From Thermodesulfovibrionales bacterium (GTDB lineage: Bacteria; Nitrospirota; Thermodesulfovibrionia; Thermodesulfovibrionales; UBA6898): 62,482 bases of DNA. The translations under genes and the position numbers were made by a program. Position 1 is the first letter of the stretch. Each line of letters begins with the position of its first letter. The stretch spans positions 1-62,482 of the forward strand of contig JBIOIY010000010.1 in assembly GCA_044450345.1 (NCBI GenBank), in the 5' to 3' direction. This document shows, one piece after another, positions 1-42,244 of the stretch. Under the pieces are notes generated by a model, which had not been told where the DNA came from, searched no databases, and worked only from the letters and a program-made list of their open reading frames with translations.

Positions 1-318
1 GGCTCCGAAAGAGATGTAGCGTTTCTCCGCCCCTACAGACAACGTTATCTATTGGGAAAATGTGGCCTTCGGTCAGGGCAGCAGTCAGGTGGGAGAACCC
101 TCGTAGCCACTATGAGGCGCCTGAATAGAGGATGACCCTCGCGGTTAGACAGAGGCAGCTCCACGACGAAGATAAGTCATGCGGTACCCAACCCGCGTAT
201 ATCAGAGTGATCTACCGTCGTTCATTACTGCTGTTCTGTCCGAAGTACACATTCTCAAAGGAGGTCATATAGGAGAAAAAAAATAACATCCCACTTGACA
301 GGTTTAATACATATCAGT
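1..318 (+). mobile_element. Probable non-coding right end of an IS110/IS1111-family insertion sequence; the transposase would lie upstream of the window
   Basis: Non-coding stretch with motifs GGGAGAACCCTCG, GCGGTACCCAACCCGCGTATATCAGAGTGATCTACCGTCG and a terminal CTTGACA...CATATCAG. I recall this pattern from IS110-family 3' ends. Not verified by search. Confidence 0.55.
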
Positions 319-719
319 CGGTGTTAACCGCACCGATCGCTGAAAATATTTTCAATTTCCTTCTGAGTCGGAAATCTGTGAAGGTTTCCTTTGGAAATTC
401 ACGCGGACGAAATTTGAGTTCTGTCCTCTCCGTAGTCTCAGGTTACGCCTGCGATACCGCTGGATCGAGCATACTACGGGGCAAACTCCGCAGTTATCGC
501 GAATTGAAACTCGCGTTTAGTCCTGTGAGCACATGACGGCAGTTGTATTCCCCTCCTTTTGCATAGTAATCGGCGCTATACGTAACAAAGTTGACCGATT
601 CTTAGGGCTACCAAGGGGCGAGTTCCGGCAACTACAATACCGGGGCCAAATCTCGCCCGCCTTCATATGAGGGTAGGAATCGCATTCTTTTCAATGGCCG
701 ATTTTCCTTGCATGATGAT

Positions 720-940
720 TGTCATTCCCGTGCAAACGAGAATTCACCGCTCTGTGTCTCCCCTTCGGAAATCATAACTCCCCTTAACCCCCTCTTATCT
801 TTTCTCCTCGGCGAATCCGCCTGAGTGCGGAAAGAGGGGGAGAGGCGCCATGCCTGCCGGCAGGCAGGAAGCCTGGGGGCGTTATCTTAAGGGGGGGAAT
901 TGAAGGGGCGGTCTGGATACCCGCCTTCGCGGGTATGACA
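720..940. repeat. Composite nested palindromic repeat (family A ends enclosing a family B element that carries two further small insertions)
   Basis: Ends are GTCATTCCCG...GAATTCA and TGGATACCCGCCTTCGCGGGTATGAC. The internal 750-911 aligns to 42128-42235 apart from a 30-bp insert (802-831) and a 21-bp insert (848-868). Confidence 0.85.
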
Positions 941-963
941 GACTTTACGTTTTAATAGAGTTT

Positions 964-980
964 TTATTCGACGCCCCTAC
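964..980 (-). repeat. GTAG-type REP half-site directly after the gspN stop
   Basis: Minus strand reads GTAGGGGCGTCGAATAA. The same GTAGGGGC...GCCCCTAC motif occurs at 38387-38408 and 50515-50541. Confidence 0.5.
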
Positions 981-1762
981 TAAAGCGGCAGTGCTCCGGT
1001 GATCGGGATCGAATAGTGTCCCGGCGAGTTTTTGTATTTTTCGAGAATGAGAAAGATGAAGTTGCTGTCTTTGAAAGATTTTTCCGGCATGAGTTCCATG
1101 ATCAGGTTCATCCCTCCTGAAGTGATTTCCCCGCTCAGCCTTGCATAAATACCTGCGCCCTCCAACGCAAAGGAAGTTATGCGGACCGAATTCCCCATAA
1201 CGGTCATGGCGCCCCGCGCGCTGGTGAACGCATCGAGCGGGATGGTGATACCCCCGAATGACCCCTGCCCGAATCGCGCATCCCTGACTTCGAACTTTAT
1301 ATCACCGCGGACATTTTCGATCTTCAGCGTTCCCGTGAGAGCACCTTTCCCGTCAATACCGAGGAGCGAAAAAAAAGGCATGTCCGCAATATCGGCACCG
1401 GCAACCGTAATATCTACGTGACTTTTCCCCCTGAATAGATCTATCGTCCCTTTTACCCTGCCGCCGCCGGTCTCGCCCCGGAAATGGGCATTCAACCGCA
1501 GAGTCAGGAGCGACAGGGGATTGATCCTGCCCGCGACGTTTTCTACCGACATCAGCGTCCTGTCGTTTTTCTTAAGCCGGATGCTGCCGCACGTAAAATC
1601 GAAAAAAATGCCTTTCCTGATATCCGACGTTTCGATGCGCATATCGCTGTCATGCATCGCCCCCTCGACCAGCCCTGCGAGCAGGGATTCGGGGATTGCT
1701 ATGACCCAGAGGCCGAATACGAAAATGACGATAACAAGGCAGACGATCAGGAAACGCTTCAC
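980..1762 (-). CDS. gspN: Type II secretion system protein N (deltaproteobacterial type)
   Basis: N-terminal TM helix, beta-rich periplasmic region and terminal IPITG motif. Last gene of the gsp operon; ATGA overlap with gspM. Confidence 0.8.
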   Translation of the reverse strand: MKRFLIVCLVIVIFVFGLWVIAIPESLLAGLVEGAMHDSDMRIETSDIRKGIFFDFTCGSIRLKKNDRTLMSVENVAGRINPLSLLTLRLNAHFRGETGGGRVKGTIDLFRGKSHVDITVAGADIADMPFFSLLGIDGKGALTGTLKIENVRGDIKFEVRDARFGQGSFGGITIPLDAFTSARGAMTVMGNSVRITSFALEGAGIYARLSGEITSGGMNLIMELMPEKSFKDSNFIFLILEKYKNSPGHYSIPITGALPL

Positions 1763-2271
1763 TTCGGGCTTAACTTCGGTTTGATAAGCCCGACCGTCAT
1801 CGTGACATTGAGGAGAGACGGGTTATCGAAAGAGGTCTTCATCGAGGTCTTTCTCACGGTGAGTATCATCGGCGCGTTCTCTATCCTGTAGAGGATGTTG
1901 ACCATCTCGTTCATCGTCACCTTCTCGACCGAGACCTCCGCCTCTTCTTCGGACGCGAATTTCTTTTCTCTTGTGCCGGTCGATTTTACTGACTTGACCT
2001 TCTGTCCCAACCCCATCGATTTAAATACCTCGTCCACCGCCTGGACTATGCCCTCCACCTTTGTAAGCGATCTCTTTCCTTCGACCGCGTCGACGGCGGT
2101 TTTCAATCCTGCGTATTCATTCGAGAGCGCAAGCATCTCCTCCTGCCGGGACCTGAGAGTGTACCGCTCCCGTTTCAGAGACAGTGAGACTTCAAACAGG
2201 ATGGCGCAGACAATGAACAGGAGGGCGATGACCGATATCGCGAGGATGTTTTTGTCTATCTTCAAGTTCAT
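1759..2271 (-). CDS. gspM: Type II secretion system protein M
   Basis: Single TM, coiled coil and ferredoxin-like C-terminal domain. Lies between gspL and gspN with 4-nt overlaps. Confidence 0.8.
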   Translation of the reverse strand: MNLKIDKNILAISVIALLFIVCAILFEVSLSLKRERYTLRSRQEEMLALSNEYAGLKTAVDAVEGKRSLTKVEGIVQAVDEVFKSMGLGQKVKSVKSTGTREKKFASEEEAEVSVEKVTMNEMVNILYRIENAPMILTVRKTSMKTSFDNPSLLNVTMTVGLIKPKLSPK

Positions 2272-3344
2272 GTCCTCCTTCCTCTAACGGTGAGGGTAAA
2301 GAGCGTCTTCCCCTGGACGGACGGTTTGGTGTCGGATATAGTTATTTCAGTAAATACCTTTTCCAGATCGGTCTTTGTCTTCTGGACATCGCTCATCGTA
2401 GGCGCCTCACCTTTCAATATGATAAGGTCCCTGTCCACTGTTATCTCGATGAATGATACGCCGGGTCTGCTTGCACCGCTCAAATCGAGAAGTGTATCGA
2501 GCGGGGATACGCCGACAAAGGAACTTTCTTTGTCCTTCAGTTCCTTCATATGGGCCTTGAGCTGGTAAAGCTCATTCGAGATCTTCCTTTCCGAGGGGAA
2601 GAGGCCCTGGTAGGTCTTTCGTATAGACTCCTTGATCGAGTCGTTTTCACGCTTTGTCGAAACGATGACCATGACGTTGTCAGCCAGGAAGATGAACAGC
2701 ACCAATACGACAAGTGCGGCGGTCATCATCAAGGACTTCTTCGTCCGCTCCGTGTCCGCGGTGTATGCGAACTCACCCCTTCTGAGGTTGACCGTCGGGT
2801 TCTTTATCTCGGCTACTGCGGCGCTGATGCGGTCCTTTTCCTCCAGGGGTTCCGGCGAGAGAAGCTTTCCTGCGATCTCCTCTGCAGAGGCTGATGAACT
2901 CACGGCATGCGCCAATTCAAGGGAAACGACCGCCTTGGGGTCGATGCCGGAGGCCTTGAGCCTGTTCAATATCGTGCGCAGGGTCTCCTTCCCGATATAG
3001 GCCACAAGGACCTGAGATTTTTCTTCACCGCGGCTGAGAATGAAGGCATCGAATGCAACGCTGCCCGAGCCGCCCAGGACGAGGTTGTCGATTTCAAAAG
3101 GGACGAGCTCTCTTACTTTCTTGATTTCGGAAAAGGGAAGTTCCAGGACCCTGAAGTCGAGGAGATTGAGAGGCAGGCTGAAGATGGACTCTCCGGCGCC
3201 GACTGGTTTATCAAAGGCAAAGGAATAATTTTCTTCAACGGGTATTGTGAAACTGCCCCCGGGTTGACCGTTTCTGCCGCCGTTATCAAAAGAATATACG
3301 GAGAGTTCCCGGCCTTTGAAGTCCAGGAAGACTGTCTTACTCAC
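2268..3344 (-). CDS. gspL: Type II secretion system protein L
   Basis: Cytoplasmic actin-like N-domain, NLRRGEF motif before the TM, PilN-like periplasmic domain, and operon position. Confidence 0.85.
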   Translation of the reverse strand: MSKTVFLDFKGRELSVYSFDNGGRNGQPGGSFTIPVEENYSFAFDKPVGAGESIFSLPLNLLDFRVLELPFSEIKKVRELVPFEIDNLVLGGSGSVAFDAFILSRGEEKSQVLVAYIGKETLRTILNRLKASGIDPKAVVSLELAHAVSSSASAEEIAGKLLSPEPLEEKDRISAAVAEIKNPTVNLRRGEFAYTADTERTKKSLMMTAALVVLVLFIFLADNVMVIVSTKRENDSIKESIRKTYQGLFPSERKISNELYQLKAHMKELKDKESSFVGVSPLDTLLDLSGASRPGVSFIEITVDRDLIILKGEAPTMSDVQKTKTDLEKVFTEITISDTKPSVQGKTLFTLTVRGRRT

Positions 3345-3392
3345 CTTGCGTCTTCCTTAAGTACAAAGACCATAAGAATGACAGATTTATTT

Positions 3393-3450
3393 GTCACTTC
3401 GGCTTGTCCAAAGTCTTTCCCCTGAAGAATTCCCGACAAGCGGGAATGAC
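3393..3450. repeat. Family A palindromic repeat between gspK and gspL
   Basis: GTCACTTCGGCTTGTCCAAAGTC...GAATTCCCGACAAGCGGGAATGAC. Same two-hairpin element as at 4364, 6009 and 6686. Confidence 0.85.
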
Positions 3451-3478
3451 TCCTTACTAATAAACCCATCTGCACCTG

Positions 3479-4498
3479 CTACATCTCCTTCCAATATAGA
3501 ACTGAGTTGCCTTGAAGCACGCTTTCAATGATGCGCTTAATGCCGCCGGACTCGGCGGTCGCAACGACATGAAATGCGGTGCCGCTATATACTGCGTGTC
3601 CTGCCCCAAAGCCCACGCTGATGTCGGGGACCGCCTGTAGTGATGTCAAAGGTCTGTAGCTTATAATCCTTTCAGCCATATCCTCCGATGTATTTTCGGC
3701 AAGCGACATCAGCACCGGCACGTCTGCAGTGTTGACATTGATGCTAAAATTATTGTCGCCACTGCCGTATATTGTAACATAGGGCAGTAACTTGTCATAA
3801 CTCTCCCTGTCGATTCCGGGTATCAGGAGAAGTTCATCAACGCTATCGAGAAGTGCGTTCTTCGGCTGTATACTTGCGGCGTTCTGCGGCCTGCGGTCAG
3901 TGGAGGCATTGATCCAATAGGTGACCTTATTGGCGATATCCGGATCGAGATTAAGATTCCTGACGCGATTGAGATTTCTGATAAGATTGACGAAAAATGC
4001 TTGCCCCTCCGGGTTCCTCAGCGAATTCAAATTGAACTTCGCATTTTCATCCTCAATCCTGAGGGTTATCGTGCCGTCGAGATCGCCGAAGGGGATCTTC
4101 TGGCTCATCTCAAAGGCAGCCCTGGTTTTATACTGTTCAAGCATATTGCTGGTGATGAGCTTGGAAGCCAGTCTTGTCGCGGATTTTGCGGTGATGGAAA
4201 GCTTCTGAGAGGTTTGCCAGTTGTGAAGGGCATTTGTGTTTACGTATACGCCATAAGCAAACTCCACGACCATAGCTGTGATCAGCGCGACGATCATCAA
4301 GACGAGGACAAGGGCCATGCCGCTGCGATCGGTGAAAGGGGAGAGACTAAGACCCGTTTGTTTGTCATTCCGGCTTGTCGGGAATCTTTCTTCCGGAAGG
4401 ATTCCCGACCTGCCTACCGGACAGGCAGGCGCGCTTCGCTTGCGGGAATGACAAATACGTTTGGTCATACTACGGTACCTGTTCACCTTTTTTCTCAT
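3479..4498 (-). CDS. gspK: T2SS minor pseudopilin GspK with a 60-aa repeat-expanded leader
   Basis: SG|MALVLVL prepilin site (no E5, typical of GspK), DENAKFNLN, ELLLIPGI and INVNTA motifs. Start placed at the ATG at 4498 overlapping the gspJ TGA, not at 4630. Confidence 0.9.
   Translation of the reverse strand: MRKKVNRYRSMTKRICHSRKRSAPACPVGRSGILPEERFPTSRNDKQTGLSLSPFTDRSGMALVLVLMIVALITAMVVEFAYGVYVNTNALHNWQTSQKLSITAKSATRLASKLITSNMLEQYKTRAAFEMSQKIPFGDLDGTITLRIEDENAKFNLNSLRNPEGQAFFVNLIRNLNRVRNLNLDPDIANKVTYWINASTDRRPQNAASIQPKNALLDSVDELLLIPGIDRESYDKLLPYVTIYGSGDNNFSINVNTADVPVLMSLAENTSEDMAERIISYRPLTSLQAVPDISVGFGAGHAVYSGTAFHVVATAESGGIKRIIESVLQGNSVLYWKEM
4364..4452. repeat. Family A palindromic repeat inside the gspK leader, with a nested 21-bp palindrome at 4409-4429
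   Basis: GTCATTCCGGCTTGTCGGGAATC...GATTCCCGA[CCTGCCTACCGGACAGGCAGG]CGCGCTTCGCTTGCGGGAATGAC. Confidence 0.9.
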
Positions 4499-5100
4499 AT
4501 CGTATTGCCTATCTTCCGCCTGACCGTATCGAAAAAGCTGACCGGCCTGTCTTTGATCTTTGCGGTGATGGTGATCCTGATTTCGAGGGGTGGCTGCTTC
4601 GTCTCGGAGGTGTCCCATGTCTTCACCCATTTACTGCCGTCATTTACTTCGACTGAAAAAGATTCGAGCCCCTCGATCAGCTCTTCGCCCTTTGTAGTAT
4701 TGTCCGGTTTATAGGCACTATCCATTTTTTTAAAAAGTGTCAAGACCCCGTCTTTATCCTCGACATAATAAGAGATCATCACGATGCCGTAAGAAAGAGG
4801 GGAAAAGGCGGTAAAGGTGAACCGCGACGCCTGTTTGCCGTAAAAGTCCTTGTCTTCCACCTTCACAAGAGAACTCATGTTGCTGGACTTGTAGAGAATA
4901 GACTCGCCTTCCCTGGTCATAACGTCAATGGCCGTCCTGCATTCCTGGAGCTTCAGAAGCGATTCATCAAGCCCCGTCATGGCCTTGTGGGAAAGAAAGA
5001 AGGAGCCGTAAATAGCAGAGAGGATGATCGAAAAAAGGACCATTGCGATCAAGAGTTCGAGGAGGGTGAAGCCTTTCTCATCTCTGCAGGTCCTTTTCAT
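4495..5100 (-). CDS. gspJ: T2SS minor pseudopilin GspJ
   Basis: KG|FTLLELL N-methylation motif with a short 10-aa leader; C-terminal WVKTWD...PLEIRITI pattern. Confidence 0.9.
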   Translation of the reverse strand: MKRTCRDEKGFTLLELLIAMVLFSIILSAIYGSFFLSHKAMTGLDESLLKLQECRTAIDVMTREGESILYKSSNMSSLVKVEDKDFYGKQASRFTFTAFSPLSYGIVMISYYVEDKDGVLTLFKKMDSAYKPDNTTKGEELIEGLESFSVEVNDGSKWVKTWDTSETKQPPLEIRITITAKIKDRPVSFFDTVRRKIGNTI

Positions 5101-5516
5101 TTTGTCTTCCCGAGAAGTTTCGGCTTCTCGATAAGTTCGCTGAACTTCACATTTTCTTTCCCATTAACGACGGTGACTGAAAATTCAATAATACCCGGAT
5201 AGACAGAGTCCTTTACCTCGGTAGTGTAATGATATCGGGTGTAAGGATCGGGGAAATCGCCACTTGCAGACGCCGGACCCTTTTCAATCTCGATAAGCTT
5301 GCTCTTGGCGAGCATCGTCGCTATTGTGACAGTTTCATGTCTTTCGGCAATGGTGAGATGATAATTGAGTGAATAGAGAAGGGTGATGAGAAGGCCTCCC
5401 ACGATGGCGAGGGCCAGCATGACCTCAAGAAGGGTAAACCCTTCCTCTGTGAGACGTGAAACGTGAGACCTGCCTGCCGGACAGGCAGGCCTGAAACGTG
5501 GAGAGTCTGTTCTCAT
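5097..5516 (-). CDS. gspI: T2SS minor pseudopilin GspI with a 26-aa repeat-containing leader
   Basis: EG|FTLLEVMLALAI motif; ATGA overlap with the gspH stop fixes the start. Confidence 0.9.
   Translation of the reverse strand: MRTDSPRFRPACPAGRSHVSRLTEEGFTLLEVMLALAIVGGLLITLLYSLNYHLTIAERHETVTIATMLAKSKLIEIEKGPASASGDFPDPYTRYHYTTEVKDSVYPGIIEFSVTVVNGKENVKFSELIEKPKLLGKTK
5449..5500. repeat. GTGA(G/A)AC heptamer array with an inserted 21-bp palindrome (5469-5489) inside the gspI leader
   Basis: GTGAGAC GTGAAAC GTGAGAC [CTGCCTGCCGGACAGGCAGGC] CTGAAAC GTG. Confidence 0.85.
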
Positions 5517-6097
5517 TCCTGCTTTCCTTCCGCGATCTTTACCCTGCCGCTCACGGAACTTAAGGAAACAGTCATGTCCTTGTCCTCATCCCTGAGATGC
5601 ACTGCCAGGTTCTCCCGGATCCCGAGAGGTCCGAAGAATACCGTAACCTCTCCCTCTCTGATGTTGCCTTTAGAGGTCAGCGTAAGCGAGGCGAGGCTCT
5701 TCAGCCTTTCGGTCTTTTCACCGTCCGGACCCTGCCATGACAAGACGCCGTCGGGAAGGCTGAACTTCAGGGAATATATGTTCTTTGTCGCAACCGCATT
5801 ATCGTTGAGATACCTCAGGAGCGAGGCTGTTTTCCTCGCCTCTGCCTTTATCTTGTTGCCTGTGCCGAAAAAAGCAGGAACGACCAGCATCGCAAGCATG
5901 GAGATGATGAAGACCACTACGGCCAGCTCAAGAAGGGTAAACCCTGCGTTCCCGGAAGCCCGCATCGTGGCTAATTTGGGTTCGGACGGACCGACATTTT
6001 CTGAGCCTGTCATTCCCGCTTGTCGGGAATCCTTCTTTCGGATCTCGGAAAGATTGCGGACAAGCCGCAATGACAGCTCTTTGAGGCCGATGTCCAT
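5513..6097 (-). CDS. gspH: T2SS minor pseudopilin GspH (start at 6097 or alternatively 5965)
   Basis: AG|FTLLELAVV motif and C-terminal SSVSGRVKI; lies between gspG and gspI. Confidence 0.85.
   Translation of the reverse strand: MDIGLKELSLRLVRNLSEIRKKDSRQAGMTGSENVGPSEPKLATMRASGNAGFTLLELAVVVFIISMLAMLVVPAFFGTGNKIKAEARKTASLLRYLNDNAVATKNIYSLKFSLPDGVLSWQGPDGEKTERLKSLASLTLTSKGNIREGEVTVFFGPLGIRENLAVHLRDEDKDMTVSLSSVSGRVKIAEGKQE
6009..6074. repeat. Family A palindromic repeat (66 bp), in-frame within the extended gspH leader
   Basis: GTCATTCCCGCTTGTCGGGAATC...GATTGCGGACAAGCCGCAATGAC. Confidence 0.9.
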
Positions 6098-6160
6098 TTT
6101 ATTTTGTACACCTGTGCAGAGGGTGAACTCTGATCGTATTTTCCAGCCTCTGCTTACATG

Positions 6161-6616
6161 TTACTGCATGTCCCAACTTTTAATGTCCGCGTCTTTGCCT
6201 TCCCCGCCCTCTTTGCCGTCTCCGCCGTAGCTAAGGATATCGAAGTCTCCATGGACTCCGGGCGATACGTACATATAAGGGTTACCCCAGGGGTCAAGGG
6301 GGATCTTCTTCTGTTCGAGATATCCGCCCTCTCTGTATTTACCCGGGACTTGTCCCGTCGCAGGTTTTTCGATCAACGATTCGAGGCCCTGTTCAGTGGT
6401 AGGATAAAAACCGTTGTCGATCTTGAAGAGCTTGAGGGCGGTCTCGAAGTTTTTTATCTGGATTTTGGCGTCCGCTATCTTTGCATCGTCAGTCCGGCCC
6501 ATGATCTTCGGCGCGACGATCGCTACGAGGAGGCTCAGGATAAAGACTACGACTATTATTTCAAGAAGGGTGAAACCGGCCCGTGTGGACATTTTACCCG
6601 TAGTAATGCGTTTCAT
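6161..6616 (-). CDS. gspG: T2SS major pseudopilin GspG
   Basis: AG|FTLLEIIVV, DNGFYPTTEQGL, DPWGNPY and DILSYGGDGKEGGEGKDADI motifs. Confidence 0.97.
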   Translation of the reverse strand: MKRITTGKMSTRAGFTLLEIIVVVFILSLLVAIVAPKIMGRTDDAKIADAKIQIKNFETALKLFKIDNGFYPTTEQGLESLIEKPATGQVPGKYREGGYLEQKKIPLDPWGNPYMYVSPGVHGDFDILSYGGDGKEGGEGKDADIKSWDMQ

Positions 6617-6685
6617 GTTTCCTCCGTATTCAGTGACTCCTGCATAACTGACGATCTACGCAATTTCCCACTAATCCGTTGATCT

Positions 6686-6743
6686 GTCACTCGCGCTTGT
6701 CGGGAGTCCCTCTGAAGAAAGATTCCGGGCAAGCCGGAATGAC
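6686..6743. repeat. Family A palindromic repeat between gspF and gspG
   Basis: GTCACTCGCGCTTGTCGGGAGTC...GATTCCGGGCAAGCCGGAATGAC. Confidence 0.85.
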
Positions 6744-6819
6744 AGAAATAGGACGTTAGTGAGACTGAATCAACAAGAACTAGTATACAATATTCTTTTC
6801 ACTTTATAGAAAGTAGAGC

Positions 6820-7995
6820 TTATTTCACGAGTTGGTTCAACTGGAACATCGGCAGCAGCACGGCAAGCACGATAAACCCGACGACAATCCCCATGAGCAG
6901 GATCATAGAGGGTTCGAGCAACGCAAGCGCCTTCTGCACCCTCCGCTCGAAATCTTCTTCGTATGAATCGGCGGTCTTGCCTAACACTTCCACGAGAGAT
7001 CCGCTTTTTTCGCCCGTGGCGATCAACTGCAGAAGCACCGGCGGAAAACCTTCGAGCGAATGGGAAAGGCGAGCGCCTTCTGCCACTCCTTTTGCCGCCT
7101 GCCTGATCCTCTCCTCGATGACGATGTTGCCGGTCGATTTTGCGGAGAGTTCAAGCGATTTGAGCATCGGAAGTCCGCCTCCGAGGAGAAAACCGAGGGT
7201 CCTTGCGAACCTCCCGAAATAGAGACTCTGAAGGACATTGCCCGGGAGTTGTAGTTTCAACGCATCGAGATAACGGCCGTGTCTTTCGCGCAATCTCTTC
7301 ATCGCTGCGACCAATGCGACCGCCAGGATTATGAGAAGCCACCAGTAATTTACGAAGAGGTTGCTTATCTTGATAAGCACGACCGTAATGAAGGGCAGGG
7401 CGCTCTTGCTGTTTTCAAATATCTTCACGATCTTGGGAACGACGAAGGTGAAGAGGAAGGACATGACGACAAAGCCCACAGAGGCCATAAAAACCGGGTA
7501 GATCATTGCGGCGCGGAGCTTAGACCGTATCGACGCCTGTTTTTCGAGGAAGTCCGCGACCCTTATCAGCACCCTGTCGAGTGTCCCGCTCTGTTCTCCG
7601 GCCGCGACCATATTGATATAAAATTCAGGGAACAACTTAGGATGCGCTTCGAGCGCCCGGGATAGACTTGCGCCCGCAGCAACGTTCTCCCTTATCCCGA
7701 CTAATACGCCCTTCCAGAAGCCTCTGTTCTCATCGGAAAGGGACCGGAGCGCGTCGATCAAGGGGACACCCGAGGAGAGGAGTGTCGAAAGCTGTCTTGT
7801 GATGTAAGGGAGAAGCGTCGCGTCGTATTTCTTCGAGAGCCATCTGTTTTCTTTGTGGTGGAATGCGCCTACGTCTTTAGGGTATATGCCCCGGGCCTTG
7901 ATGGTCGCGATAGCGTCCTGGATACCGTCGGCCTCCAGGGTCCCCGCGGCCTGGGACCCGTCGGTCTTATATCCCTTATAATAGAAGATCGGCAT
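6820..7995 (-). CDS. gspF: T2SS inner-membrane platform protein GspF
   Basis: TRQLSTLLSSGVPL, AGEQSGTLD, MIYP and LLEP motifs; two T2SSF domains. Confidence 0.97.
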   Translation of the reverse strand: MPIFYYKGYKTDGSQAAGTLEADGIQDAIATIKARGIYPKDVGAFHHKENRWLSKKYDATLLPYITRQLSTLLSSGVPLIDALRSLSDENRGFWKGVLVGIRENVAAGASLSRALEAHPKLFPEFYINMVAAGEQSGTLDRVLIRVADFLEKQASIRSKLRAAMIYPVFMASVGFVVMSFLFTFVVPKIVKIFENSKSALPFITVVLIKISNLFVNYWWLLIILAVALVAAMKRLRERHGRYLDALKLQLPGNVLQSLYFGRFARTLGFLLGGGLPMLKSLELSAKSTGNIVIEERIRQAAKGVAEGARLSHSLEGFPPVLLQLIATGEKSGSLVEVLGKTADSYEEDFERRVQKALALLEPSMILLMGIVVGFIVLAVLLPMFQLNQLVK

Positions 7996-8009
7996 TTTTC
8001 AATACTACG

Positions 8010-9539
8010 TCAGCCTTCGACGAGGTCTTTCTGCGTTACCCTCAGGACTTCTTCTACCGTAGTTATCCCCTTCAATACCTTTTCGAAGCCATCGTTTCTC
8101 AACGTCTTCATCCCGCCGGAAACGGCCGCACTCTTAATGCTCTGCGAGTCGATCTTGTCGGAAATCATCTGCCGTGTCGAATCGGTTATGATCAGCGTTT
8201 CAAAGATCGCGGTCCTTCCGAGATATCCCTTTCCCTGGCATTTATCGCAGCCCCTGCCTCGATATAAGGTAAAGGCGCCCCCACGAGGAGCATTTTCGAA
8301 ATAAGACCTCTCGATCTCTGAAGGGGTATAGGGTTCTTTACAATGAGGACAGATGACCCTCACCAACCTCTGTGCCAGGACCGCCATCAGAGACGAGGCA
8401 ACGAGGAAGGGCTCGACCCCCATGTCTATGAGCCTCACGATCGCGGAGGGCGCATCGTTCGTGTGAAGGGTGCTCAGCACGAGATGGCCGGTGAGAGACG
8501 CCTGGATAGCGATCTCGGCTGTTTCTACGTCCCTTATCTCTCCCACCATTATGACGTCGGGGTCCTGCCTGAGTATCGACCTGAGGCCAGATGCGAAGGT
8601 CAAGCCGATCTTCGGATTTACATGGATCTGCCCGACACCTTTCAACTGGTATTCGACCGGGTCCTCGACTGTGATGATGTTCTTCTCTTCGGTATGGACC
8701 CTGTTGAGTGCCGCATAAAGGGTAGTCGACTTGCCGCTTCCTGTGGGGCCTGTAACGAGTATGATGCCGTTCGTCCTCTTAAGGAGTTCTTCGAGACGCT
8801 TCTCGTCGGTTTCGTCCAGACCTACCTCCCAGAGCCCTATCAGGCCCTGTTTCCTGTCCAGGAGCCTGAGGACGGCGCGCTCCCCGAAGCTCGTGGGGAT
8901 CACCGACACCCTGATATCGATGTCCCGGCCGCCGATGAGGAGCCTTATCCTTCCGTCCTGCGGCAGCCTCTTCTCTGCAATATCGAGGTTCGACATGATC
9001 TTAACGCGGCTTATGAGTGCGTCCTGGATTATTTTTGGAGGAGTCAGCACACGGTGGAGTATCCCGTCGACCCTCATCCTCACGTCGAGTTCTTTTTCAT
9101 AGGGCTCGATATGGATATCGCTCGCCCGTTCCTTCACCGCCTGCTGGAGTATGGCGTTCAGGAGCCGGATGATCGGCGCATCCTCGGTAAGTTCCAGGAT
9201 GTCCTTCGGTTTTTCGAACTCTGTTGCAACGGACGAAAGGTCTTCGCCCGTGATATTGTCCATCACGTCCTCTGCCGATGAGCCGACCTGACCGTAGAAC
9301 CTGTTGATCGCATCTATGACCACCCCCGCCGAGGCACTGAGCGGCATCGGGGAAAGGCCGAAATGCCGCGACAATTCCCTGAGGGCGAGGACCCCTCTTT
9401 CGTCCGCGACGGCCGCTATCAGATGCCCGTTTTCCCTTCTGAGCGGCATGAGCATATTGGCCTTTGCATAAGAATGGGGGACTTCCTTGATGAGGGGATG
9501 CTCTACATCTTCGTCGTGAATGACCGTGATGGTTTCCAT
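8010..9539 (-). CDS. gspE: T2SS ATPase GspE
   Basis: ASDIHIEP, Walker A GPTGSGKS, LRQDPDVIMVGEIRD, TGHLVLSTLH and a tetracysteine motif. Confidence 0.98.
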   Translation of the reverse strand: METITVIHDEDVEHPLIKEVPHSYAKANMLMPLRRENGHLIAAVADERGVLALRELSRHFGLSPMPLSASAGVVIDAINRFYGQVGSSAEDVMDNITGEDLSSVATEFEKPKDILELTEDAPIIRLLNAILQQAVKERASDIHIEPYEKELDVRMRVDGILHRVLTPPKIIQDALISRVKIMSNLDIAEKRLPQDGRIRLLIGGRDIDIRVSVIPTSFGERAVLRLLDRKQGLIGLWEVGLDETDEKRLEELLKRTNGIILVTGPTGSGKSTTLYAALNRVHTEEKNIITVEDPVEYQLKGVGQIHVNPKIGLTFASGLRSILRQDPDVIMVGEIRDVETAEIAIQASLTGHLVLSTLHTNDAPSAIVRLIDMGVEPFLVASSLMAVLAQRLVRVICPHCKEPYTPSEIERSYFENAPRGGAFTLYRGRGCDKCQGKGYLGRTAIFETLIITDSTRQMISDKIDSQSIKSAAVSGGMKTLRNDGFEKVLKGITTVEEVLRVTQKDLVEG

Positions 9540-9545
9540 CTTCCG

Positions 9546-11762
9546 CTACTTTATCGTAACGATGTAATTGGGCTCCGCGTACTCGACCTCAGGCAGGTCC
9601 GAGAATTCCTTTACGGCGTCTTCTACGGACTGTTTCTCCTTCAACCTAAGGAGATACACCCGAATGTTATCCGTATACTTTATTACTTTTGCGCCTTTTT
9701 GGGAGATGATCGAACGGACCTTTTCCTCCGGGACGTTTTCTTTGAACTTCACCAAAAGCTCGCCTGAAACGAACCGATTGTTGGCCACGGCAAACTCCTT
9801 TTGTTTGTCCCTTGTAATTTCAGCGAGTCTGTCGGCTTCCTTGATGATATGAGGGTTTAGGAAGACGATCAGGTTTGTTTTATTCTTCGTTGTGTTTTTC
9901 GTTTTAAACAGCCAGCCCAGGAGGGGGATATCACCGAGGACCGGCATCTTTGTCGTCGTTTCCTCGTCGTTTTCCTGCATCAGCCCGCCGATGACGACGG
10001 TCTGGTTGTCCTTCACTACGACCGATGTCTTTGTGGAGCGCTTTGTGATGGTGGGGCCGACGCTGACGGTGAGCGCATCGGACTGGTTCTTCACCTGTGA
10101 AATCTCTTGATATATGTCGAGCTTGACATGATCTCCCTCGGTGATCTGAGGCGTGATCTTTAATATGACACCGACATCCTGCCTCACAATGGAATTGACA
10201 ATCCCCGAGACTGCAGTGTTGCTCGTGCTACTCGCGGCAACACCTAAGCCTGCAGTCGTCTGGCTCTGGGATATAAAGGGCACGTTCTCGCCGACCAGGA
10301 TTTCAGCCTCCTTGTTGTCCGAGGTCAGTATCTGGGGAGTTGAAAGTATATTCACTGAGTCTTTGAAATCGTTCAGACTGAATAAAACGGCGTAGCCCGG
10401 AATCTGGAGTGTCTGCTGGGTAGGCGTGCCGCTGGAGTCGACCGTCGTAATAGGCACTTTAAGGAAGTTTCCCAGCCCTCCCATGGTCGCGCCCTGAAGC
10501 CCCTGCAAGATATTCTGTAATGCCGTTTGGTCTATCGTACCGAACCCGCCTATCGCGACGGGTGAGCCGCCTTTTGTCGCCGTCGCCCTCCATTGGGTGC
10601 CGAGGTTCCTCAACTTGTCCATCGAGGCCTCGATGATCATCGCCTCGACGTAGACCTGCCTTCTCCGTTTGTCGAGTTGCCTGATTATCTGGGACAGGTT
10701 TTGATAATCGGCAGGCGATGCGACAACAACCAGGGCATTCGACGCCTTGTCGGAGGTAATCGTGATACCCCCTGCAGCCTCGAAGGGCGCCGCCGCACCT
10801 GGTGCGCCTGCAGGTTGTTTAGATCCCTGCATGCCCCTGATCATTCCCTCAAGGACTTTCCCGAGCTCGGTTGCGTCCGCGTTTTCGAGGAAGAAGACGT
10901 TTATCCTTCCCTGTGCCTCAGGGGCAGGGGTATCGATAAGTGAGATGAGGGCCTTCATGGATTCCCTTCCGCCTCTATCGCCAAAGAGGATGACTGCGTT
11001 AAGCCTCTGGTCCGGGACGGCAGATGCTATTTCTATCCCTGTCTGTTGTCCTGGAACGGCCCTTGTCTTGGCCTTCCCCATCCCGTCATTGAGGATCTTT
11101 GAGACCGTGTCGGCGCTCGAGTATTTGAGGAGGATGACCTCGGGCATTTCGGCCGCCGACGGTTTGTCGATAAGCTCCACGAGGGACAGGATCTTTTCCA
11201 CGTTCAGTCCCGAATCGATCACAAGGAGTAGGTTGCCGGGGCCGAATATCGAAATATGGCCGTCCTTGGATACAAGCGGCTGGAGAAATCGGAGCGCTTC
11301 GTCGGCCGAGACGTACCTGAAAGAAAGGAGCCTTGCGACATAGCTTTCGTTTATGGGCATGCCCTCTGTAGAGATCTGCAGACCCTGCTGTTTTGCCTCG
11401 ATTGCGGGGATTATCTTGTACACGTCGACCCCCGAGGGGACAACGGTGAACCCTTTCAGCTCCAGCACCGAAGTAAAGAGGCTGTATGCGTCGTCTATCG
11501 AGAGTTTGGAAGGGGCGATGATCGTTATCTTTCCTTTGACCTTGTCGTCGAAGATGAAATTCTTGCCTGTGATCTCACTGATGAACTTTGCGATGACCGG
11601 CAGTTCTACGTCGACAAAATTGAACGTCACGTTGTTCGATTTCTTTGTCTCCGCAGAGGACCCGGCAAGGACGGTCTGCCCGCCGACGGACAGGGTGAGC
11701 AGCAAGCAGATGATGGAAATAGACTTACGGCAGGTGGAGGCGAGATTGTCTAATCGTTTCAT
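9546..11762 (-). CDS. gspD: T2SS secretin GspD with a C-terminal subtilase-prodomain-like extension
   Basis: N0-N3 domains and a secretin core (QVYVEAMIIE, ILSTPQIL, KMPVLGDIPLLGWLF). The final ~76 aa read GELLVKFK...PEVEYAEPNY. Confidence 0.95.
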   Translation of the reverse strand: MKRLDNLASTCRKSISIICLLLTLSVGGQTVLAGSSAETKKSNNVTFNFVDVELPVIAKFISEITGKNFIFDDKVKGKITIIAPSKLSIDDAYSLFTSVLELKGFTVVPSGVDVYKIIPAIEAKQQGLQISTEGMPINESYVARLLSFRYVSADEALRFLQPLVSKDGHISIFGPGNLLLVIDSGLNVEKILSLVELIDKPSAAEMPEVILLKYSSADTVSKILNDGMGKAKTRAVPGQQTGIEIASAVPDQRLNAVILFGDRGGRESMKALISLIDTPAPEAQGRINVFFLENADATELGKVLEGMIRGMQGSKQPAGAPGAAAPFEAAGGITITSDKASNALVVVASPADYQNLSQIIRQLDKRRRQVYVEAMIIEASMDKLRNLGTQWRATATKGGSPVAIGGFGTIDQTALQNILQGLQGATMGGLGNFLKVPITTVDSSGTPTQQTLQIPGYAVLFSLNDFKDSVNILSTPQILTSDNKEAEILVGENVPFISQSQTTAGLGVAASSTSNTAVSGIVNSIVRQDVGVILKITPQITEGDHVKLDIYQEISQVKNQSDALTVSVGPTITKRSTKTSVVVKDNQTVVIGGLMQENDEETTTKMPVLGDIPLLGWLFKTKNTTKNKTNLIVFLNPHIIKEADRLAEITRDKQKEFAVANNRFVSGELLVKFKENVPEEKVRSIISQKGAKVIKYTDNIRVYLLRLKEKQSVEDAVKEFSDLPEVEYAEPNYIVTIK

Positions 11763-11768
11763 AGTCTA

Positions 11769-11800
11769 AGTATATTATTAAAAATGCCGTCTTAGGTCAA
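11769..11800 (-). promoter_or_regulatory. Putative internal sigma70 promoter for gspD (leaderless-type)
   Basis: TTGACC (11800-11795) is 17 nt from TAATAT. An overlapping TATACT lies 6 nt before the ATG, and there is no SD. Confidence 0.5.
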
Positions 11801-11818
11801 CACGACAGAGGGGAATGA

Positions 11819-12688
11819 TCATCTTATCTGGTAGGTCATCGTCATTCTCGCACCATTTCTTATAATATCGAGCTGGGCCCTGTCGATCCCCTTAAGGGCC
11901 GTGATCGCCTGGAGTGCGGTATCCGGGCTGGAAATACTATATTCGTTTATCCTGAGAAGCACGTCTCCGTTTTGGAGGCCGAGGCTCTGATAAAGGCCCC
12001 CCGGCTTCAACTCGCGGAGCACGAACCCCTGTTGTTTGCCCTCGGCCATGTTCGGTATGAACCTGGCATCGGTCATAAGCTGGTCCGGTTTTTCCAGTGC
12101 CTGCTGTATACGCTGCTGGTCGATGAGGTAGGTTGACTCGCCCGTCCTCTTCCCGAAGCTCGCAGCTGCCGGGCCGCCTGCCTTTACCTCCTTTATATCG
12201 GTCATGTCGGAGAACGGGACTTTAATGTCTCTGCCGTTTGACATTATTACGACGCTGTCTTTGTCGACTTTTCTGAGCGTTCCGAGACCGAGCACATTGT
12301 CCCCAACCTTGAAGATGTCCTGCTTTCCGGTCTTGTCCAGAAAAATGGCGTAGCTCCTGTCTTTCCTTCCCGCTATGGTGCCGATCAGGGCAAGGTCCGA
12401 CTGAGATATTGAAGTCCCTGATGAAGCTGAAAGGGGTTTGAGCTCCCCCGCCGGAAAACCGAAGGGATTGTTCTTCATCAGAGAGGCGTAGTCCTGGAAC
12501 TGCCGTTTCACCGGGCCCCGGACCTTTTTCTCCGACTTTGCCGGCGCCCCCTTCGGCGAGAGGGTCAGGGAAAGGAGGTCTCTTGTGAAAAGAAGGGTCG
12601 CAAGGAGGAGTAGTATCCCGACCATGCCATTGATAGCCTGAATGGCACCTTTGTTCTTCATGACGCGGGCCAGGCCTTTCAGTTCCAT
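11819..12688 (-). CDS. gspC: T2SS protein GspC with a PDZ domain (start 12688 or 12661)
   Basis: TM, HR domain (LIGTIAG...FKVGD) and PDZ (LGLQNGDVLLRIN). The track's start at 12706 falls inside the promoter. Confidence 0.9.
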   Translation of the reverse strand: MELKGLARVMKNKGAIQAINGMVGILLLLATLLFTRDLLSLTLSPKGAPAKSEKKVRGPVKRQFQDYASLMKNNPFGFPAGELKPLSASSGTSISQSDLALIGTIAGRKDRSYAIFLDKTGKQDIFKVGDNVLGLGTLRKVDKDSVVIMSNGRDIKVPFSDMTDIKEVKAGGPAAASFGKRTGESTYLIDQQRIQQALEKPDQLMTDARFIPNMAEGKQQGFVLRELKPGGLYQSLGLQNGDVLLRINEYSISSPDTALQAITALKGIDRAQLDIIRNGARMTMTYQIR

Positions 12689-12696
12689 CGACTTTG

Positions 12697-12725
12697 AACA
12701 TAACAAAAATAGCGGAAGTTGTCAA
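12697..12725 (-). promoter_or_regulatory. sigma70 promoter of the gsp operon
   Basis: TTGACA (12725-12720), a 17-nt spacer, then extended -10 TG-T-TATGTT (12702-12697). Confidence 0.7.
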
Positions 12726-13108
12726 AAAATGATATCTTGACACGCCCTATAGACTGTGATAGTTTTTTGTTAAAAGTCGCCGTCTGTAAAGATTTTTTCG
12801 GCAGAGAAGGGCATAACGGTCTGCGCCATATGGCGTACGGACGATTTGAGCCACTGGGTCTTTTTCATGGTGCCTATTTAAGTTAAGGGTCTCATGATCC
12901 GATCTTTGATATGAAAAGGCCGTTGCTTCGTAATTCTTATGGGCATCGGAATACTTTGTCCGGTATCTGCCATGCCGGCTAATTGGAAAGAAATATTTTG
13001 CCGAAAGGAGGGAGATGGCGTTATGAGTGTCTCTCTTAGGGAAATGACATGACCGGTAACTTGCTTATTTGCAGTTAAACATTTATTGGGATTCGAAAGG
13101 AGGGCTAA

Positions 13109-14371
13109 ATGCGGTGTATCGTGCGAAAGTTGTTTATTGCATCTGTTGTCTTTTTGTCTTTTCTTCTCGTCTCAACCGCAGTTCATGCTGACCCGTTCAA
13201 ATTCTCGTCTTCCACACAATTTTTGTGGGGTGACGATCTGCTCGGAGATCGCTCGGCTGTCATCGCACAGTACCTTAGGTTCACTTTTGCCCCCGAGGGG
13301 AAGCCGTACTCTGTTACCGGCTACGGGCGGCTCTGGAAGGACCTGGGCAGTCCCGAGGTGAGAAGCGACGACTTCGAGACAAGGGTTTATTATCTCTATC
13401 TCGATTATGCGCTCTTGCCCAATGTCTCCACAAGGATAGGGAGGCAGTTCACGAATTTCACTGCGGGCACATCTATCATGGACGGCATCAGGCTGGATGT
13501 GAATAAAATCGGACCCGTGGGTGTGACTCTCGCCGGAGGAAGGGATGTCACCTTCAGCCTCGACGGAGAATACTCAAGGAACGGAAATAATTTTTTTGGG
13601 ATCGACATTCACCTGCAGGACGTGAAATCGACCCAGCTGGGATTCAGCTATATCAGAAGATACGACGAGTCAGACCTTGCGAGGGAAGAACTCGGCATGA
13701 ATTTCAGATATTTTCTTAAGTTTGCCAGCCCCTATGCGGAAGTGAAGTATGACCTGCTTTCGAAGGTCTTCGACGATGCGACGATCGGCGTCGATGTCTT
13801 CCCGCTGAGTAACCTGAAGGTGAAGGCGGAGTTCTATCATTCCTATCCGACCTTCGATTCTACGTCTATTTACAGCGTCTTTGCGGTCGACAAGTTCCGG
13901 GAATATCTGATACTCGCAGAGTACAATCTGGCGATCCCGGTGAGCGTCTTCGCTTCCTACAAACGCCAGACGTACGAGGAGGATACGAACGCCGATGTGT
14001 ACACGATCGGTGCAAGGGCGTATCCCAATGAGAAACTCAACCTGAATGCCTCGTTCGATTACAGGAGAGGCTACAGCGGCTATGCCTTTTTCCCCGCCAC
14101 CGGGGTGACGGAAACTGACGGAAAATTGTACGGGTTCGAACTTTCCGGAGATTACAAGCTCAGGAAAGAGATCATTGTCTTTGCGGGCATCCAGTACGAT
14201 ACGTACAACAGGCCGGACATCTCCGGGAACAACTATGCGCGGCGTTACTGGGCAGGCGGCCGCTGGATTGCCACAAAAAAGCTTTCTGTCACGGCACGGC
14301 TCGAGGACGACGACAACCCGAATTTTTCTCACAGAATTTTGGGCCGGGTTGCCCTGGACTGGAATCTATAA
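13109..14371 (+). CDS. Outer-membrane beta-barrel porin of a porin-cytochrome complex (OmbB/OmbC-like)
   Basis: Signal peptide (AVHA-D), alternating aromatic beta strands, RIGRQF motif and terminal LDWNL. Directly precedes multiheme cytochromes. Confidence 0.85.
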   Translation: MRCIVRKLFIASVVFLSFLLVSTAVHADPFKFSSSTQFLWGDDLLGDRSAVIAQYLRFTFAPEGKPYSVTGYGRLWKDLGSPEVRSDDFETRVYYLYLDYALLPNVSTRIGRQFTNFTAGTSIMDGIRLDVNKIGPVGVTLAGGRDVTFSLDGEYSRNGNNFFGIDIHLQDVKSTQLGFSYIRRYDESDLAREELGMNFRYFLKFASPYAEVKYDLLSKVFDDATIGVDVFPLSNLKVKAEFYHSYPTFDSTSIYSVFAVDKFREYLILAEYNLAIPVSVFASYKRQTYEEDTNADVYTIGARAYPNEKLNLNASFDYRRGYSGYAFFPATGVTETDGKLYGFELSGDYKLRKEIIVFAGIQYDTYNRPDISGNNYARRYWAGGRWIATKKLSVTARLEDDDNPNFSHRILGRVALDWNL

Positions 14372-14386
14372 AGGAAAGGAGGGAAA

Positions 14387-15163: not shown

Positions 15164-15196
15164 GTGATTGCGAAAACTAAAGGAGGTAGAGATAAA

Positions 15197-17461: not shown

Positions 17462-17486
17462 TAACGTAGTAGTGTAATTTCGTAAC

Positions 17487-17519
17487 GGGGCCCCGGAGTA
17501 ATCCGGGGCCCTCTTTTTT
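17487..17519 (+). terminator. Intrinsic terminator after cytochrome 1
   Basis: GGGGCCCCGGA-GTAA-TCCGGGGCCCT followed by a T run. Confidence 0.85.
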
Positions 17520-17521
17520 CG

Positions 17522-17548
17522 GTGCGCCCGGCATGGGCGCATGCTTGG
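17522..17548 (+). mobile_element. 5' stub of a group IIC intron
   Basis: GTGCGCCCGGCATGGGCGCA matches the class C group II intron 5' end. It lies right after an intrinsic terminator, the known IIC target. No RT ORF or domain V was seen. Confidence 0.65.
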
Positions 17549-17723
17549 TCTGAGTCGTGTCTTAATGCACCGGCGCCGGACCCGGACCCAAAAAACCCAG
17601 CTTAATTTTTTTCTACCCCTTTTTTGCAGAATATTTATAATATATGCCTGGACTTGTTTTGGATTATGAAAGGTAGATTCTGAAGAGGTCACATAATGGA
17701 TAACTTTTTTATGAGGAGGGAAT

Positions 17724-31527: not shown

Positions 31528-31581
31528 GTAACGCCCCCCAACCCCCTCTTAAGATAAGAGGGGGCGAGGAGGAGTTATGAA
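31528..31581 (-). repeat. Family B palindromic repeat, short form
   Basis: Reverse complement reads CATAACTCC...CCCCCTCTTATCTTAAGAGGGGG...GGGGGCGTTA, the same core as 42150-42212 and 773-885. Confidence 0.8.
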
Positions 31582-42236: not shown

Positions 42237-42244
42237 GGCGGGTG

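Follow-up and report, generated by a model that had tools for sequence, protein, structure and literature searches.

Mini-repeats at the pseudopilin gene boundaries of a Thermodesulfovibrionia type II secretion operon and their probable translation as cleaved leaders

The operon examined here, encoding a type II secretion system (T2SS), lies in a window of 62,482 nucleotides, contig JBIOIY010000010.1 of GenBank assembly GCA_044450345.1, from a Thermodesulfovibrionales bacterium. At the boundaries of its pseudopilin genes lie mini-repeats of three kinds: hairpin doublets, here called family A, a 21-nt GC-rich palindrome (the 21-mer), and 7-nt tandem arrays. These repeats have accumulated at the boundaries and are probably translated as part of long leader peptides that would be cleaved off, leaving the mature proteins unchanged. 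Ribosomes starting at the coupled start codons of gspK and gspI would read through the repeats and produce leaders of 60 and 26 amino acids (aa). Prepilin peptidase removes everything before Gly(-1) from class III signal peptides; it would cut these leaders at that residue, so the mature pseudopilins would be unaltered. Hairpins placed directly behind coupled start codons would probably limit independent initiation and tighten translational coupling, and a tuning of minor-pseudopilin translation by the hairpins is plausible.

Repeats in the gspK and gspI leaders

The pseudopilins of the window have the features of class III signal peptides, namely Gly(-1), a hydrophobic helix after it and, in GspG, GspH, GspI and GspJ, Glu at +5. 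This glutamate is typically missing from GspK. The cleavage-site sequence is G|FTLLE in the first four and G|MALVLVLMIV in GspK, and the N_methyl Pfam score is over its cut-off for GspG, GspH and GspJ and just under it for GspI (20.6 versus 21.2 bits). The genes overlap by ATGA at the H/I, I/J and J/K boundaries. These overlaps fix the starts on which the following description depends for gspI and gspK; coordinates of the elements are collected in Table 1.

An earlier note, made from the sequence alone, had described a 60-aa GspK leader whose start is set by the overlap with gspJ and which contains a family A copy with the 21-mer nested in it (PACPVGR). The coordinates confirm this description. 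The leader, MRKKVNRYRSMTKRICHSRKRSAPACPVGRSGILPEERFPTSRNDKQTGLSLSPFTDRSG|MALV, runs from the ATG at 4498 to the Gly(-1) codon at 4319-4321, and on the gene strand its family A copy is open solely in the frame used (CHSRKRSAPACPVGRSGILPEERFPTSRNDK), being open in three of the six frames overall. All in-frame ATG, GTG and TTG codons, which would give leaders of 50, 56 and 60 aa, are located upstream of the repeat. Downstream of it, as far as the cleavage site, direct reading of the sequence finds no ATG, GTG or TTG and no CTG, ATT, ATC or ATA. The database annotation of this very gene is 10 codons short.

The 26-aa GspI leader, MRTDSPRFRPACPAGRSHVSRLTEEG|F, is likewise what the note had claimed: an ATGA-coupled leader made of a heptamer array and the 21-mer (PACPAGR), here with 5516 as its single candidate start. 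Direct reading of the stretch from the repeat to Gly(-1) again gave no ATG, GTG or TTG and no CTG, ATT, ATC or ATA. The 9-nt CACGTTTCA flanks of this 21-mer were considered as a target-site duplication and rejected, as they are units of the heptamer array. Since neither gene has another start before its cleavage site, the open reading frames (ORFs) run through the repeats, and if the two proteins have leaders of any length, the repeats of gspK and gspI must form part of what is translated. A true start downstream of the repeats, named in the note as a finding that would overturn its reading, has no candidate codon before the cleavage site in these two genes.

The building blocks themselves are distinct. 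Family A is an inverted doublet of a ~29-nt half-site, TGTCATTCCsGCTTGTCGGGAATCyTTC, each half-site being itself a small hairpin, and its palindromic core measures 59-70 bp, rising to 95 bp where the 21-mer is nested in it. As an element in its own right, the 21-mer is seven codons long, and in the gspH leader of the related locus L002 it is read in another frame (ACLSGRQ). Heptamer arrays form the backbone of ordinary leaders, where (TTTCACC)n codes FTFHLSPFT. Insertion of one element within another, in a hairpin loop or in a heptamer array, was met repeatedly.

The four family A copies of the window all sit inside a 3.4-kb stretch of its 62 kb. The half-site gave 6 matches against 0.00 expected by chance (100 shuffles), and the 21-mer gave 3 against 0.01 (shuffles). 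A pattern search found heptamer arrays in the window only in the gspI leader, and Tandem Repeats Finder (TRF) reported one unrelated period-7 array at 29425-29454. Mapping of the copies placed none in a mature pilin region, as had been noted before. An Rfam search of window positions 1-13000 at E values up to 1 returned nothing at the repeats; its two sub-threshold matches are chance ones (sR17, 21.1 bits; Xist_exon1, 16.8 bits).

Reading frame, gain and loss among relatives

The comparison set consists of 80 related loci, chosen around gspK with 10 kb of background on either side and drawn from genomes other than the source genome; the best-matching one, L001, is 70% identical. The gspK cleavage site was located in 62 of the 80 loci and in the window (63 together), the other 18 being truncated or too distant, and L079 has a family A copy and no mapped junctions. 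A strict gspK pattern in which Gly(-1) is required matched 45 loci and the window. A looser pattern matched 17 more, and Gly(-1) is also present in 15/15 among the peptides listed. In 43 of the 63 loci an in-frame gspK start shares a 4-nt overlap with the gspJ stop, and in 57 such a start lies within -8 to +20 nt of it, with leader lengths from 6 to 86 aa.

An NTGA start readily arises by chance, and family A has 4/6 frames open (the 21-mer 5-6 of 6), so the other two frames were used as an internal control. The openness of the window's own ORFs was dropped as a proof of translation in favour of this comparison, in which junctions of at least 140 nt were scored for being open back to the previous stop in their own frame and in frames +1 and +2. 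The own frame is open in 10/12 gspK junctions, against 1/12 in each of the other two. The corresponding counts are 5/6 against 0/6 and 0/6 for gspJ, 2/5 against 0/5 and 0/5 for gspI, and 5/10 against 1/10 and 1/10 for gspH. By this comparison, inserts persist only if the frame is kept and no stop codon is carried.

The leader indels of relatives match the repeat boundaries, as an alignment of orthologs, proposed earlier as a check, shows. The gspK leaders of L001 and L002 are 21 aa long (LRKKVNQFFTFHVSLFTNRSG and MRKRLDDLFTFHFSLFTNRSG) and lack the inserts. The first 6 codons of the L001 leader (MRKKVN) are common with the window, the last few codons are common to L001, L002 and the window, and in both short leaders the middle consists of a TTTTCAC array of four units. 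In P0016 and P0024, family A sits in the same place in gspK without the 21-mer, and the GspK proteins P0005 and P0002 differ by exactly seven residues, PACPVGR, a pattern that reads as a stepwise build-up. The same step is found in GspI. P0121 (99% identical) and P0122 (86%) are 139 aa long and contain RFT[PACPVGR]SHV, while P0123-P0125 and P0127 (82-87%) are 132 aa long, with 19-aa leaders that lack exactly those seven residues, the seven codons of the 21-mer. Array length also varies among gspI relatives, the leader being 34 aa in P0126 versus 19 aa in P0130. Repeat-free orthologs with equally long leaders would have counted against the proposal; those found are shorter, at 21 aa in GspK and 19 aa in GspI.

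A maximum-likelihood tree of mature GspK, built from 39 sequences (P0016 and P0023, truncated or with no site found, were excluded), places the family A bearers P0001 and P0024 in different major clades. Sister pairs with versus without an insert are P0005/P0002 (100/99), P0010/P0011 (100/98) and P0024/P0031 (96/84). On this comparative evidence, inserts are gained and lost quickly between close lineages. Leaders as called in the database have medians of 21 aa in GspK, 19 aa in GspI and 20 aa in GspH, and at least 40 aa were called in 12/104, 7/118 and 6/74 of these proteins, respectively; 16/120 homologues among those listed have no called leader. Hairpin repeats make up the long leaders of relatives as well, with the same 21-mer in L023 and a GTCATTCC...GGAATCC doublet in L057. 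At 2593-2693 in L043, a family A copy outside the pseudopilin genes has a different small GC-rich repeat nested in its central loop, so nesting into hairpin loops recurs here too.

The gspH leader allows more than one reading. No stop codon interrupts the 73 codons of its frame between the gspG stop and the cleavage site, with candidate starts at ATG 6097 (52-aa leader), 6013 (24 aa) and 5965 (8 aa), and a good Shine-Dalgarno sequence is missing at all three, as read from the sequence. The window has no in-frame gspH start within -8 to +20 nt of the gspG stop, and a -4 overlap start was found in 0/53 loci. The two genes share a reading frame and are parted by the lone gspG TAA stop (window 6097-6163). 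The closest relatives, P0241 (82%) and P0242 (80%), keep the 52-codon ORF and family A and lack a Met at position -8. In relatives devoid of family A the leaders measure 18-22 aa and line up with the 24-aa reading, whose ATG lies inside the repeat's own GGAATGACA end; this end likewise offers an ATG in L001 gspJ and in L002-L004 gspG. The repeat may stand immediately before the true start and supply that start's ATG. The earlier description of a family A copy in a 52-aa leader ORF holds for the presence of the copy; its length is 70 bp rather than 66, and the 52-aa start is only one of the three candidates. The downstream start at 5965 that it had allowed for exists as an ATG in the window and is missing from P0241 and P0242. 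Leaders of 52, 24 and 8 aa are all possible.

The leaders of gspG (14 aa) and gspJ (10 aa) had been called short and clean, which is correct for this genome, where both are repeat-free, and does not extend to relatives. L001 gspJ has a coupled 66-aa ORF carrying a family-A-like palindrome, and the gspG leaders of L002-L004 terminate in GGAATGACAGG, a family A terminus.

The repeats are also concentrated at these junctions. The 21-mer pattern has 18 matches in 1.30 Mb, 9 of them in H/I/J/K junctions. All five 21-mers with exact arms and a TCCGG loop (two in the window, one each in L002, L023 and L062) lie in pseudopilin junctions, as does an L031 variant; the remaining 9 pattern matches are mostly two-substitution ones with unrelated loops. 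Family A elements with a half-site E <1e-3 number 14, divided among H/I/J/K junctions (5), other T2SS spacers (3) and places elsewhere (6). None of the six outside the operon lies in an ORF of at least 120 aa, and they are ordinary intergenic repeats. Period-7 arrays of at least 3 copies and a score of at least 35 number 123 in the 63 loci. Sixty of them fall in H/I/J/K junctions, a total of 16.9 kb out of 1.0 Mb; a further 21 are found upstream of a prepilin motif at a distance of up to 200 nt, and 15 lie in 83.7 kb of other uncovered DNA. The densities are ~3.5 per kb at junctions versus 0.18 per kb in other uncovered DNA, a ratio of ~20x that is rough, because genes were mapped by a crude greedy-ORF proxy and gspK served to select the loci; the most cautious reading is still several-fold. 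Furthermore, junction RNAs fold better than mature-coding controls of the same length: the fraction with z < -2 is 0.24-0.38 versus 0-0.10 (paired Wilcoxon p = 0.017, 3e-7, 3e-4 and 0.029).

Two further kinds of heptamer array were seen among the relatives. TTCATCC-type arrays of up to 10-11.6 units occur in L043, L044, L052, L053 and L057 at the same relative position, ~7.2-7.8 kb upstream of gspK, and probably mark another junction of the T2SS operon. Junctions of L015, L020 and L044 combine an AAGGATG array with a complementary CTTCATC array inside the leader; the pairs in L020 are at 7146-7176 / 7498-7530, 7949-7979 / 8046-8078 and 8410-8440 / 8474-8504. The AAGGATG array has a TGA in every frame, and each of its ATGs stands at Shine-Dalgarno distance after the AGGA of the preceding unit. 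Such an array pair looks like a stop-and-restart cassette whose start could be hidden in a hairpin.

Readings of the repeats and known counterparts

Several points weigh against the translation of the repeats as long, cleaved leaders. Leaders of 60-86 aa exceed the published ranges for prepilins, and their translation and cleavage are deduced from sequence. Family A and the 21-mer are open in most frames, so that openness of the window's ORFs is by itself weak evidence. The starts of database proteins are gene-caller choices, and the long loci are partly non-independent, with inserts common to L052/L053 and to L028/L030. In gspK both solutions exist, L035 and L043 being exceptions with a non-coding spacer and a short leader of their own, and the long gspI junctions of relatives are mostly closed, with a separate downstream start (2/5 are open). 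Finally, tolerance alone leaves the enrichment of junctions over other non-coding DNA unexplained. The proposal that cleaved leaders serve as safe harbours for selfish repeats therefore survives as a statement about tolerance, supported by the kept frame and the short repeat-free orthologs, and does not by itself account for the enrichment. With heptamer arrays ~20x denser at pseudopilin junctions, a passive safe harbour is not the whole story, and targeting or function is likely to contribute. The repeats are likely either targeted to the junctions, or their hairpins are kept for tighter coupling or a lower dose of the tip pseudopilins.

Taken further, the repeats would be selected RNA-structure modules. 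Their hairpins would block independent initiation, GspH, GspI, GspJ and GspK would come only from ribosomes arriving from the upstream gene, in the low, matched amounts of a tip complex, and the long leaders would exist to house the downstream arm of the hairpin. This possibility, which we regard as somewhat doubtful, draws on the 60/123 period-7 arrays in H/I/J/K junctions and their density, on the placement of all 5 exact 21-mers and the one variant in pseudopilin junctions of 5 genomes, on the greater structure of junction RNAs relative to mature-coding controls, and on the AAGGATG array and its complement in the L015, L020 and L044 leaders. It is countered by a lack of conservation in sequence, position and presence alike, L001 and L002 being without family A at all four window positions. 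Just 24-38% of junctions fold clearly better than shuffles, the same families outside the operon behave as ordinary intergenic repeats, and the background extends only 10 kb to either side of loci picked around gspK.

A less probable account, and in our view an unlikely one, makes the repeats untranslated spacer, with the true starts downstream and the long ORFs an accidental read-through of stop-poor repeats. For gspH it is plausible, given the ATGs at 6013 and 5965, the alignment of relatives' 18-22-aa leaders with the 24-aa reading, and the lack of an in-frame start near the gspG stop or of any -4 overlap among the 53 loci. Of the four family A copies, two plainly lie between genes; the family is open in 4/6 frames; and gspK of L035 and L043 shows that a spacer followed by a short leader is viable. 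For gspK and gspI, however, no ATG, GTG, TTG or near-cognate start lies between the repeat and Gly(-1), and a gspK start at the Met after the site would lose the conserved Gly(-1) and the polar residues -2 to -4 of relatives. The gspK frame control (10/12 versus 1/12 and 1/12) speaks against accidental openness, and the 8-aa gspH start is missing from both P0241 and P0242.

Short repeats in the signal-peptide region of Neisseria opa genes work as contingency switches, and the heptamer arrays could be imagined to do the same: a change of one or two units would shift the leader frame and turn a minor pseudopilin, and with it the T2SS, off or on. The unit length is not a multiple of three, arrays of 3-10 units stand in or beside the leaders of all four minor pseudopilins in many genomes, and array length varies among relatives (P0126 with a 34-aa leader versus P0130 with 19 aa). 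This explanation is nevertheless improbable. No out-of-frame allele was seen among these loci, where closed frames have a separate start; most arrays have just 3-5 units; the window has an array in gspI only, of 3 units; and consensus assemblies cannot reveal minority variants.

Beyond the translation of repeats as cleaved leaders, we put forward a wider interpretation tentatively. The pseudopilin leader junctions of Thermodesulfovibrionia may be a dedicated niche for all three repeat kinds (21-23-nt palindromes), targeted or selected, with translated leaders of up to 86 aa, far beyond any described. RNA hairpins or unit slippage would set the coupling, dose or on/off state of the tip proteins, and the leader would double as regulatory RNA space.

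Each component has counterparts. In-frame miniature inverted-repeat transposable elements within genes are known, among them the Rickettsia palindromic elements (RPEs), ERIC, BOX and QMITE1 (PMC10969869, in part). Like the repeats described here, RPEs are small palindromic mobile repeats that sit in frame in protein genes and are translated; in contrast, RPEs are located in mature regions of numerous unrelated proteins and are retained in the final product (PMC10969869, in part). Here the inserts lie in the cut-off leader and are concentrated in one gene set, the host is a member of the Nitrospirota, and the sequence families are probably unrelated. With a palindromic core of 59-70 bp (about 100-150 bp in RPEs), a Nitrospirota host and no mature-region copy, the resemblance is one of mode of working and not of membership. 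REP/REPIN doublets and BIMEs are found in operon spacers and have been proposed to act in termination and mRNA stability; they share with family A the inverted doublet of short palindromes between genes of one operon (PMC3733652, in part). Family A differs in its 5' tag, GTCAT rather than GTAG or CGTC, and in having two copies inside ORFs. The doublet architecture is present, and no RAYT (Y1_Tnp) gene was found among the 47 + 13 window ORFs scanned.

The Neisseria NTS repeat is bound and cut by the GIY-YIG single-stranded DNA nuclease SsnA and occurs in clusters near certain genes (PMC11893778, in part). Family A half-sites resemble NTS and the Ssn-related motif (SRM) repeats: they have GTCATTCCCGC...CGGGAATC in common with the NTS consensus, form a hairpin and cluster near particular genes. 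The family A loop is one base shorter than in NTS/dRS3, ATTCCC-N7-GGGAAT (3429-3447, 6012-6030), and the half-sites form inverted doublets. Filing family A as NTS/SRM was rejected for want of a strict SRM match (patterns used: NTS, CGTCATTCCCGCGMAVGCGGGAATCYRG; dRS3, ATTCCC-N8-GGGAAT; SRM, degenerate pattern). Two of its 8 half-sites are within one substitution of the SRM pattern, and the dRS3 N8 pattern had 0 matches. A different repeat of the window, at 913-940, is the one strict SRM match and also matches NTS within 3 substitutions. The 47 + 13 window ORFs scanned include no GIY-YIG (ssn) gene, and a motif scan and a phmmer search over 10,487 six-frame ORFs from the window and all loci found GIY-YIG only in L072. 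There, a 97-aa GIY-YIG gene (7596-8062; Pfam 1.8e-14) is flanked by inverted GTCATTTCGA...GAAATC hairpin repeats and placed exactly in the gspF-gspG spacer of a delta-proteobacterial T2SS, the spacer in which the window has a family A copy; the half-site subfamily differs. This element has the look of a mobile repeat-nuclease-repeat unit, and family A would fit as a gene-less derivative of such a unit.

Heptamer repeats by start codons have been described in Beggiatoaceae (TAACTGA; PMC4679880, in part) and in Geobacter metallireducens (GGGACCG / MTYCTGA; PMC2700814, in part). Like those reported here, they are genome-specific 7-nt arrays of 2-6 or more units near starts, with a suspected role in translation (PMC4679880 and PMC2700814, in part). 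The present arrays have other units, would often be translated as leader sequence, are often arranged in inverted pairs, and gather at pseudopilin genes. For prepilin leaders the published lengths are <10 aa (type IVa) and about 15-30 aa (type IVb), the latter being class III signal peptides longer than the usual 5-10 residues and removed by prepilin peptidase (PMC3927602, in part). The 26-aa leader of GspI falls inside the type IVb range. The 60-aa leader of GspK, and those of up to 86 aa in relatives, do not fit the short leader expected of a prepilin, and in the leaders of 48-86 aa deduced here the extra length is repeat DNA, not conserved sequence. Neither repeats in prepilin leaders nor leaders of this length turned up in a full-text search with subscription journals outside its scope.

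In-frame gene repeats and intergenic hairpin repeats are thus each known, and what appears to be new is a cleaved prepilin leader that absorbs repeat DNA recurrently across a bacterial class. If leaders of 48-86 aa are truly made and removed, prepilin peptidases accept far longer substrates than described, and gene callers that trim or extend such starts mis-annotate pseudopilins. The ~20-fold junction enrichment provides an opening for testing targeting, tolerance and use of such repeats against one another, and for studying how coupling is enforced in operons whose products are needed in matched amounts. The findings also tie NTS-like repeats, together with a GIY-YIG element, to one particular operon spacer outside Proteobacteria.

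The operon and its surroundings

The T2SS operon, gspC-D-E-F-G-H-I-J-K-L-M-N, is complete and occupies window positions 980-12706 on the minus strand (Pfam T2SSC, T2SSF, T2SSG, T2SSJ, T2SSK, GspL_C and N_methyl). The host is an uncultured member of the Nitrospirota (Thermodesulfovibrionia), and homologue names come from Nitrospirae, Nitrospiraceae and Thermodesulfovibrionales metagenome-assembled genomes. No Peptidase_A24 gene was found among the window ORFs scanned.

Table 1. Leader segments, repeat copies and T2SS genes of the window
Feature	Position	Strand	Basis and remarks
gspK leader-coding segment, 60 codons to Gly(-1), before MALVLV	4319-4498	minus	RNA fold -69 kcal/mol, z -5.07
Family A hairpin doublet, two inverted NTS/SRM-like half-sites, 95-bp imperfect palindrome	4361-4455	minus	gspK leader codons 15-46
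21-nt GC-rich palindrome CCTGCCTGTCCGGTAGGCAGG	4409-4429	minus	Nested in left sub-hairpin of gspK family A; reads PACPVGR; absent from family A of P0016 and P0024
gspI leader-coding segment, 26 codons	5439-5516	minus	RNA fold -28.2 kcal/mol, z -2.16
21-nt palindrome in gspI leader	5469-5489	minus	Reads PACPAGR; missing from 132-aa relatives
Heptamer array, unit GTCTCAC/CACGTYT	5449-5469	minus	3.0 copies (TRF); codes SHVSRLT; extra unit upstream, ~5494-5500
Family A copy, 70 bp, upstream of or inside gspH leader	6007-6076	minus	GGAATGACA end supplies ATG 6013
Family A copy, gspF-gspG spacer, non-coding	6683-6746	minus	Fold -34.8 kcal/mol, z -5.05
Family A copy, gspK-gspL spacer, non-coding	3392-3450	minus	Pattern searches
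gspC	11819-12706	minus	Pfam
gspD	9546-11762	minus	Pfam
gspE	8010-9539	minus	Pfam
gspF	6820-7995	minus	Pfam
gspG, major pseudopilin	6161-6616	minus	Pfam T2SSG 1e-41; 14-aa leader; strong GGAGG upstream
gspH longest ORF, 194 aa	5513-6097	minus	Gly(-1) codon 5942-5944; alternative starts 6013, 5965
gspI, 139 aa	5097-5516	minus	Pfam; homologues carry name GspI; sole in-frame start is ATGA overlap with gspH
gspJ	4495-5100	minus	Pfam N_methyl 7.9e-10 and T2SSJ; 10-aa repeat-free leader
gspK, minor pseudopilin, 339 aa	3479-4498	minus	Pfam T2SSK_1st 1.2e-12, T2SSK 2.6e-08; homologues named GspK
gspL	2268-3344	minus	Pfam; gspM and gspN beyond

The spacer downstream of gspN (window 720-950) is dense in other repeats. 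It holds the strict SRM/NTS-like hairpin at 913-940 and a 20-nt variant of the GC-rich palindrome at 849-868. It also contains a CCCCTTAACCCCCTCTTATC...AAGAGGGGG repeat family, found again at 31529-31574 and 42123-42238 and inside the L023 gspK leader.

Beside the operon, on the plus strand, lie a porin-like gene (13109-14371) and an MtrC/MtrF-like multihaem cytochrome gene (14387-15163). Two large multihaem cytochrome genes follow at 15164-17461 and 17724-19946 and form a 2.48-kb tandem duplication, with direct repeats of 73-83% identity. The genes of 13109-19946 look like a porin-cytochrome set for extracellular electron transfer, which the T2SS may export. Farther along the window, a HigB/HigA-type toxin-antitoxin layout is found at 39704-40370 on the minus strand, where a Gp49-like (DUF891) gene overlaps a helix-turn-helix gene. 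Finally, a 78-nt direct repeat of 94% identity is present at 57729-57806 and 61483-61560, 3.75 kb apart.

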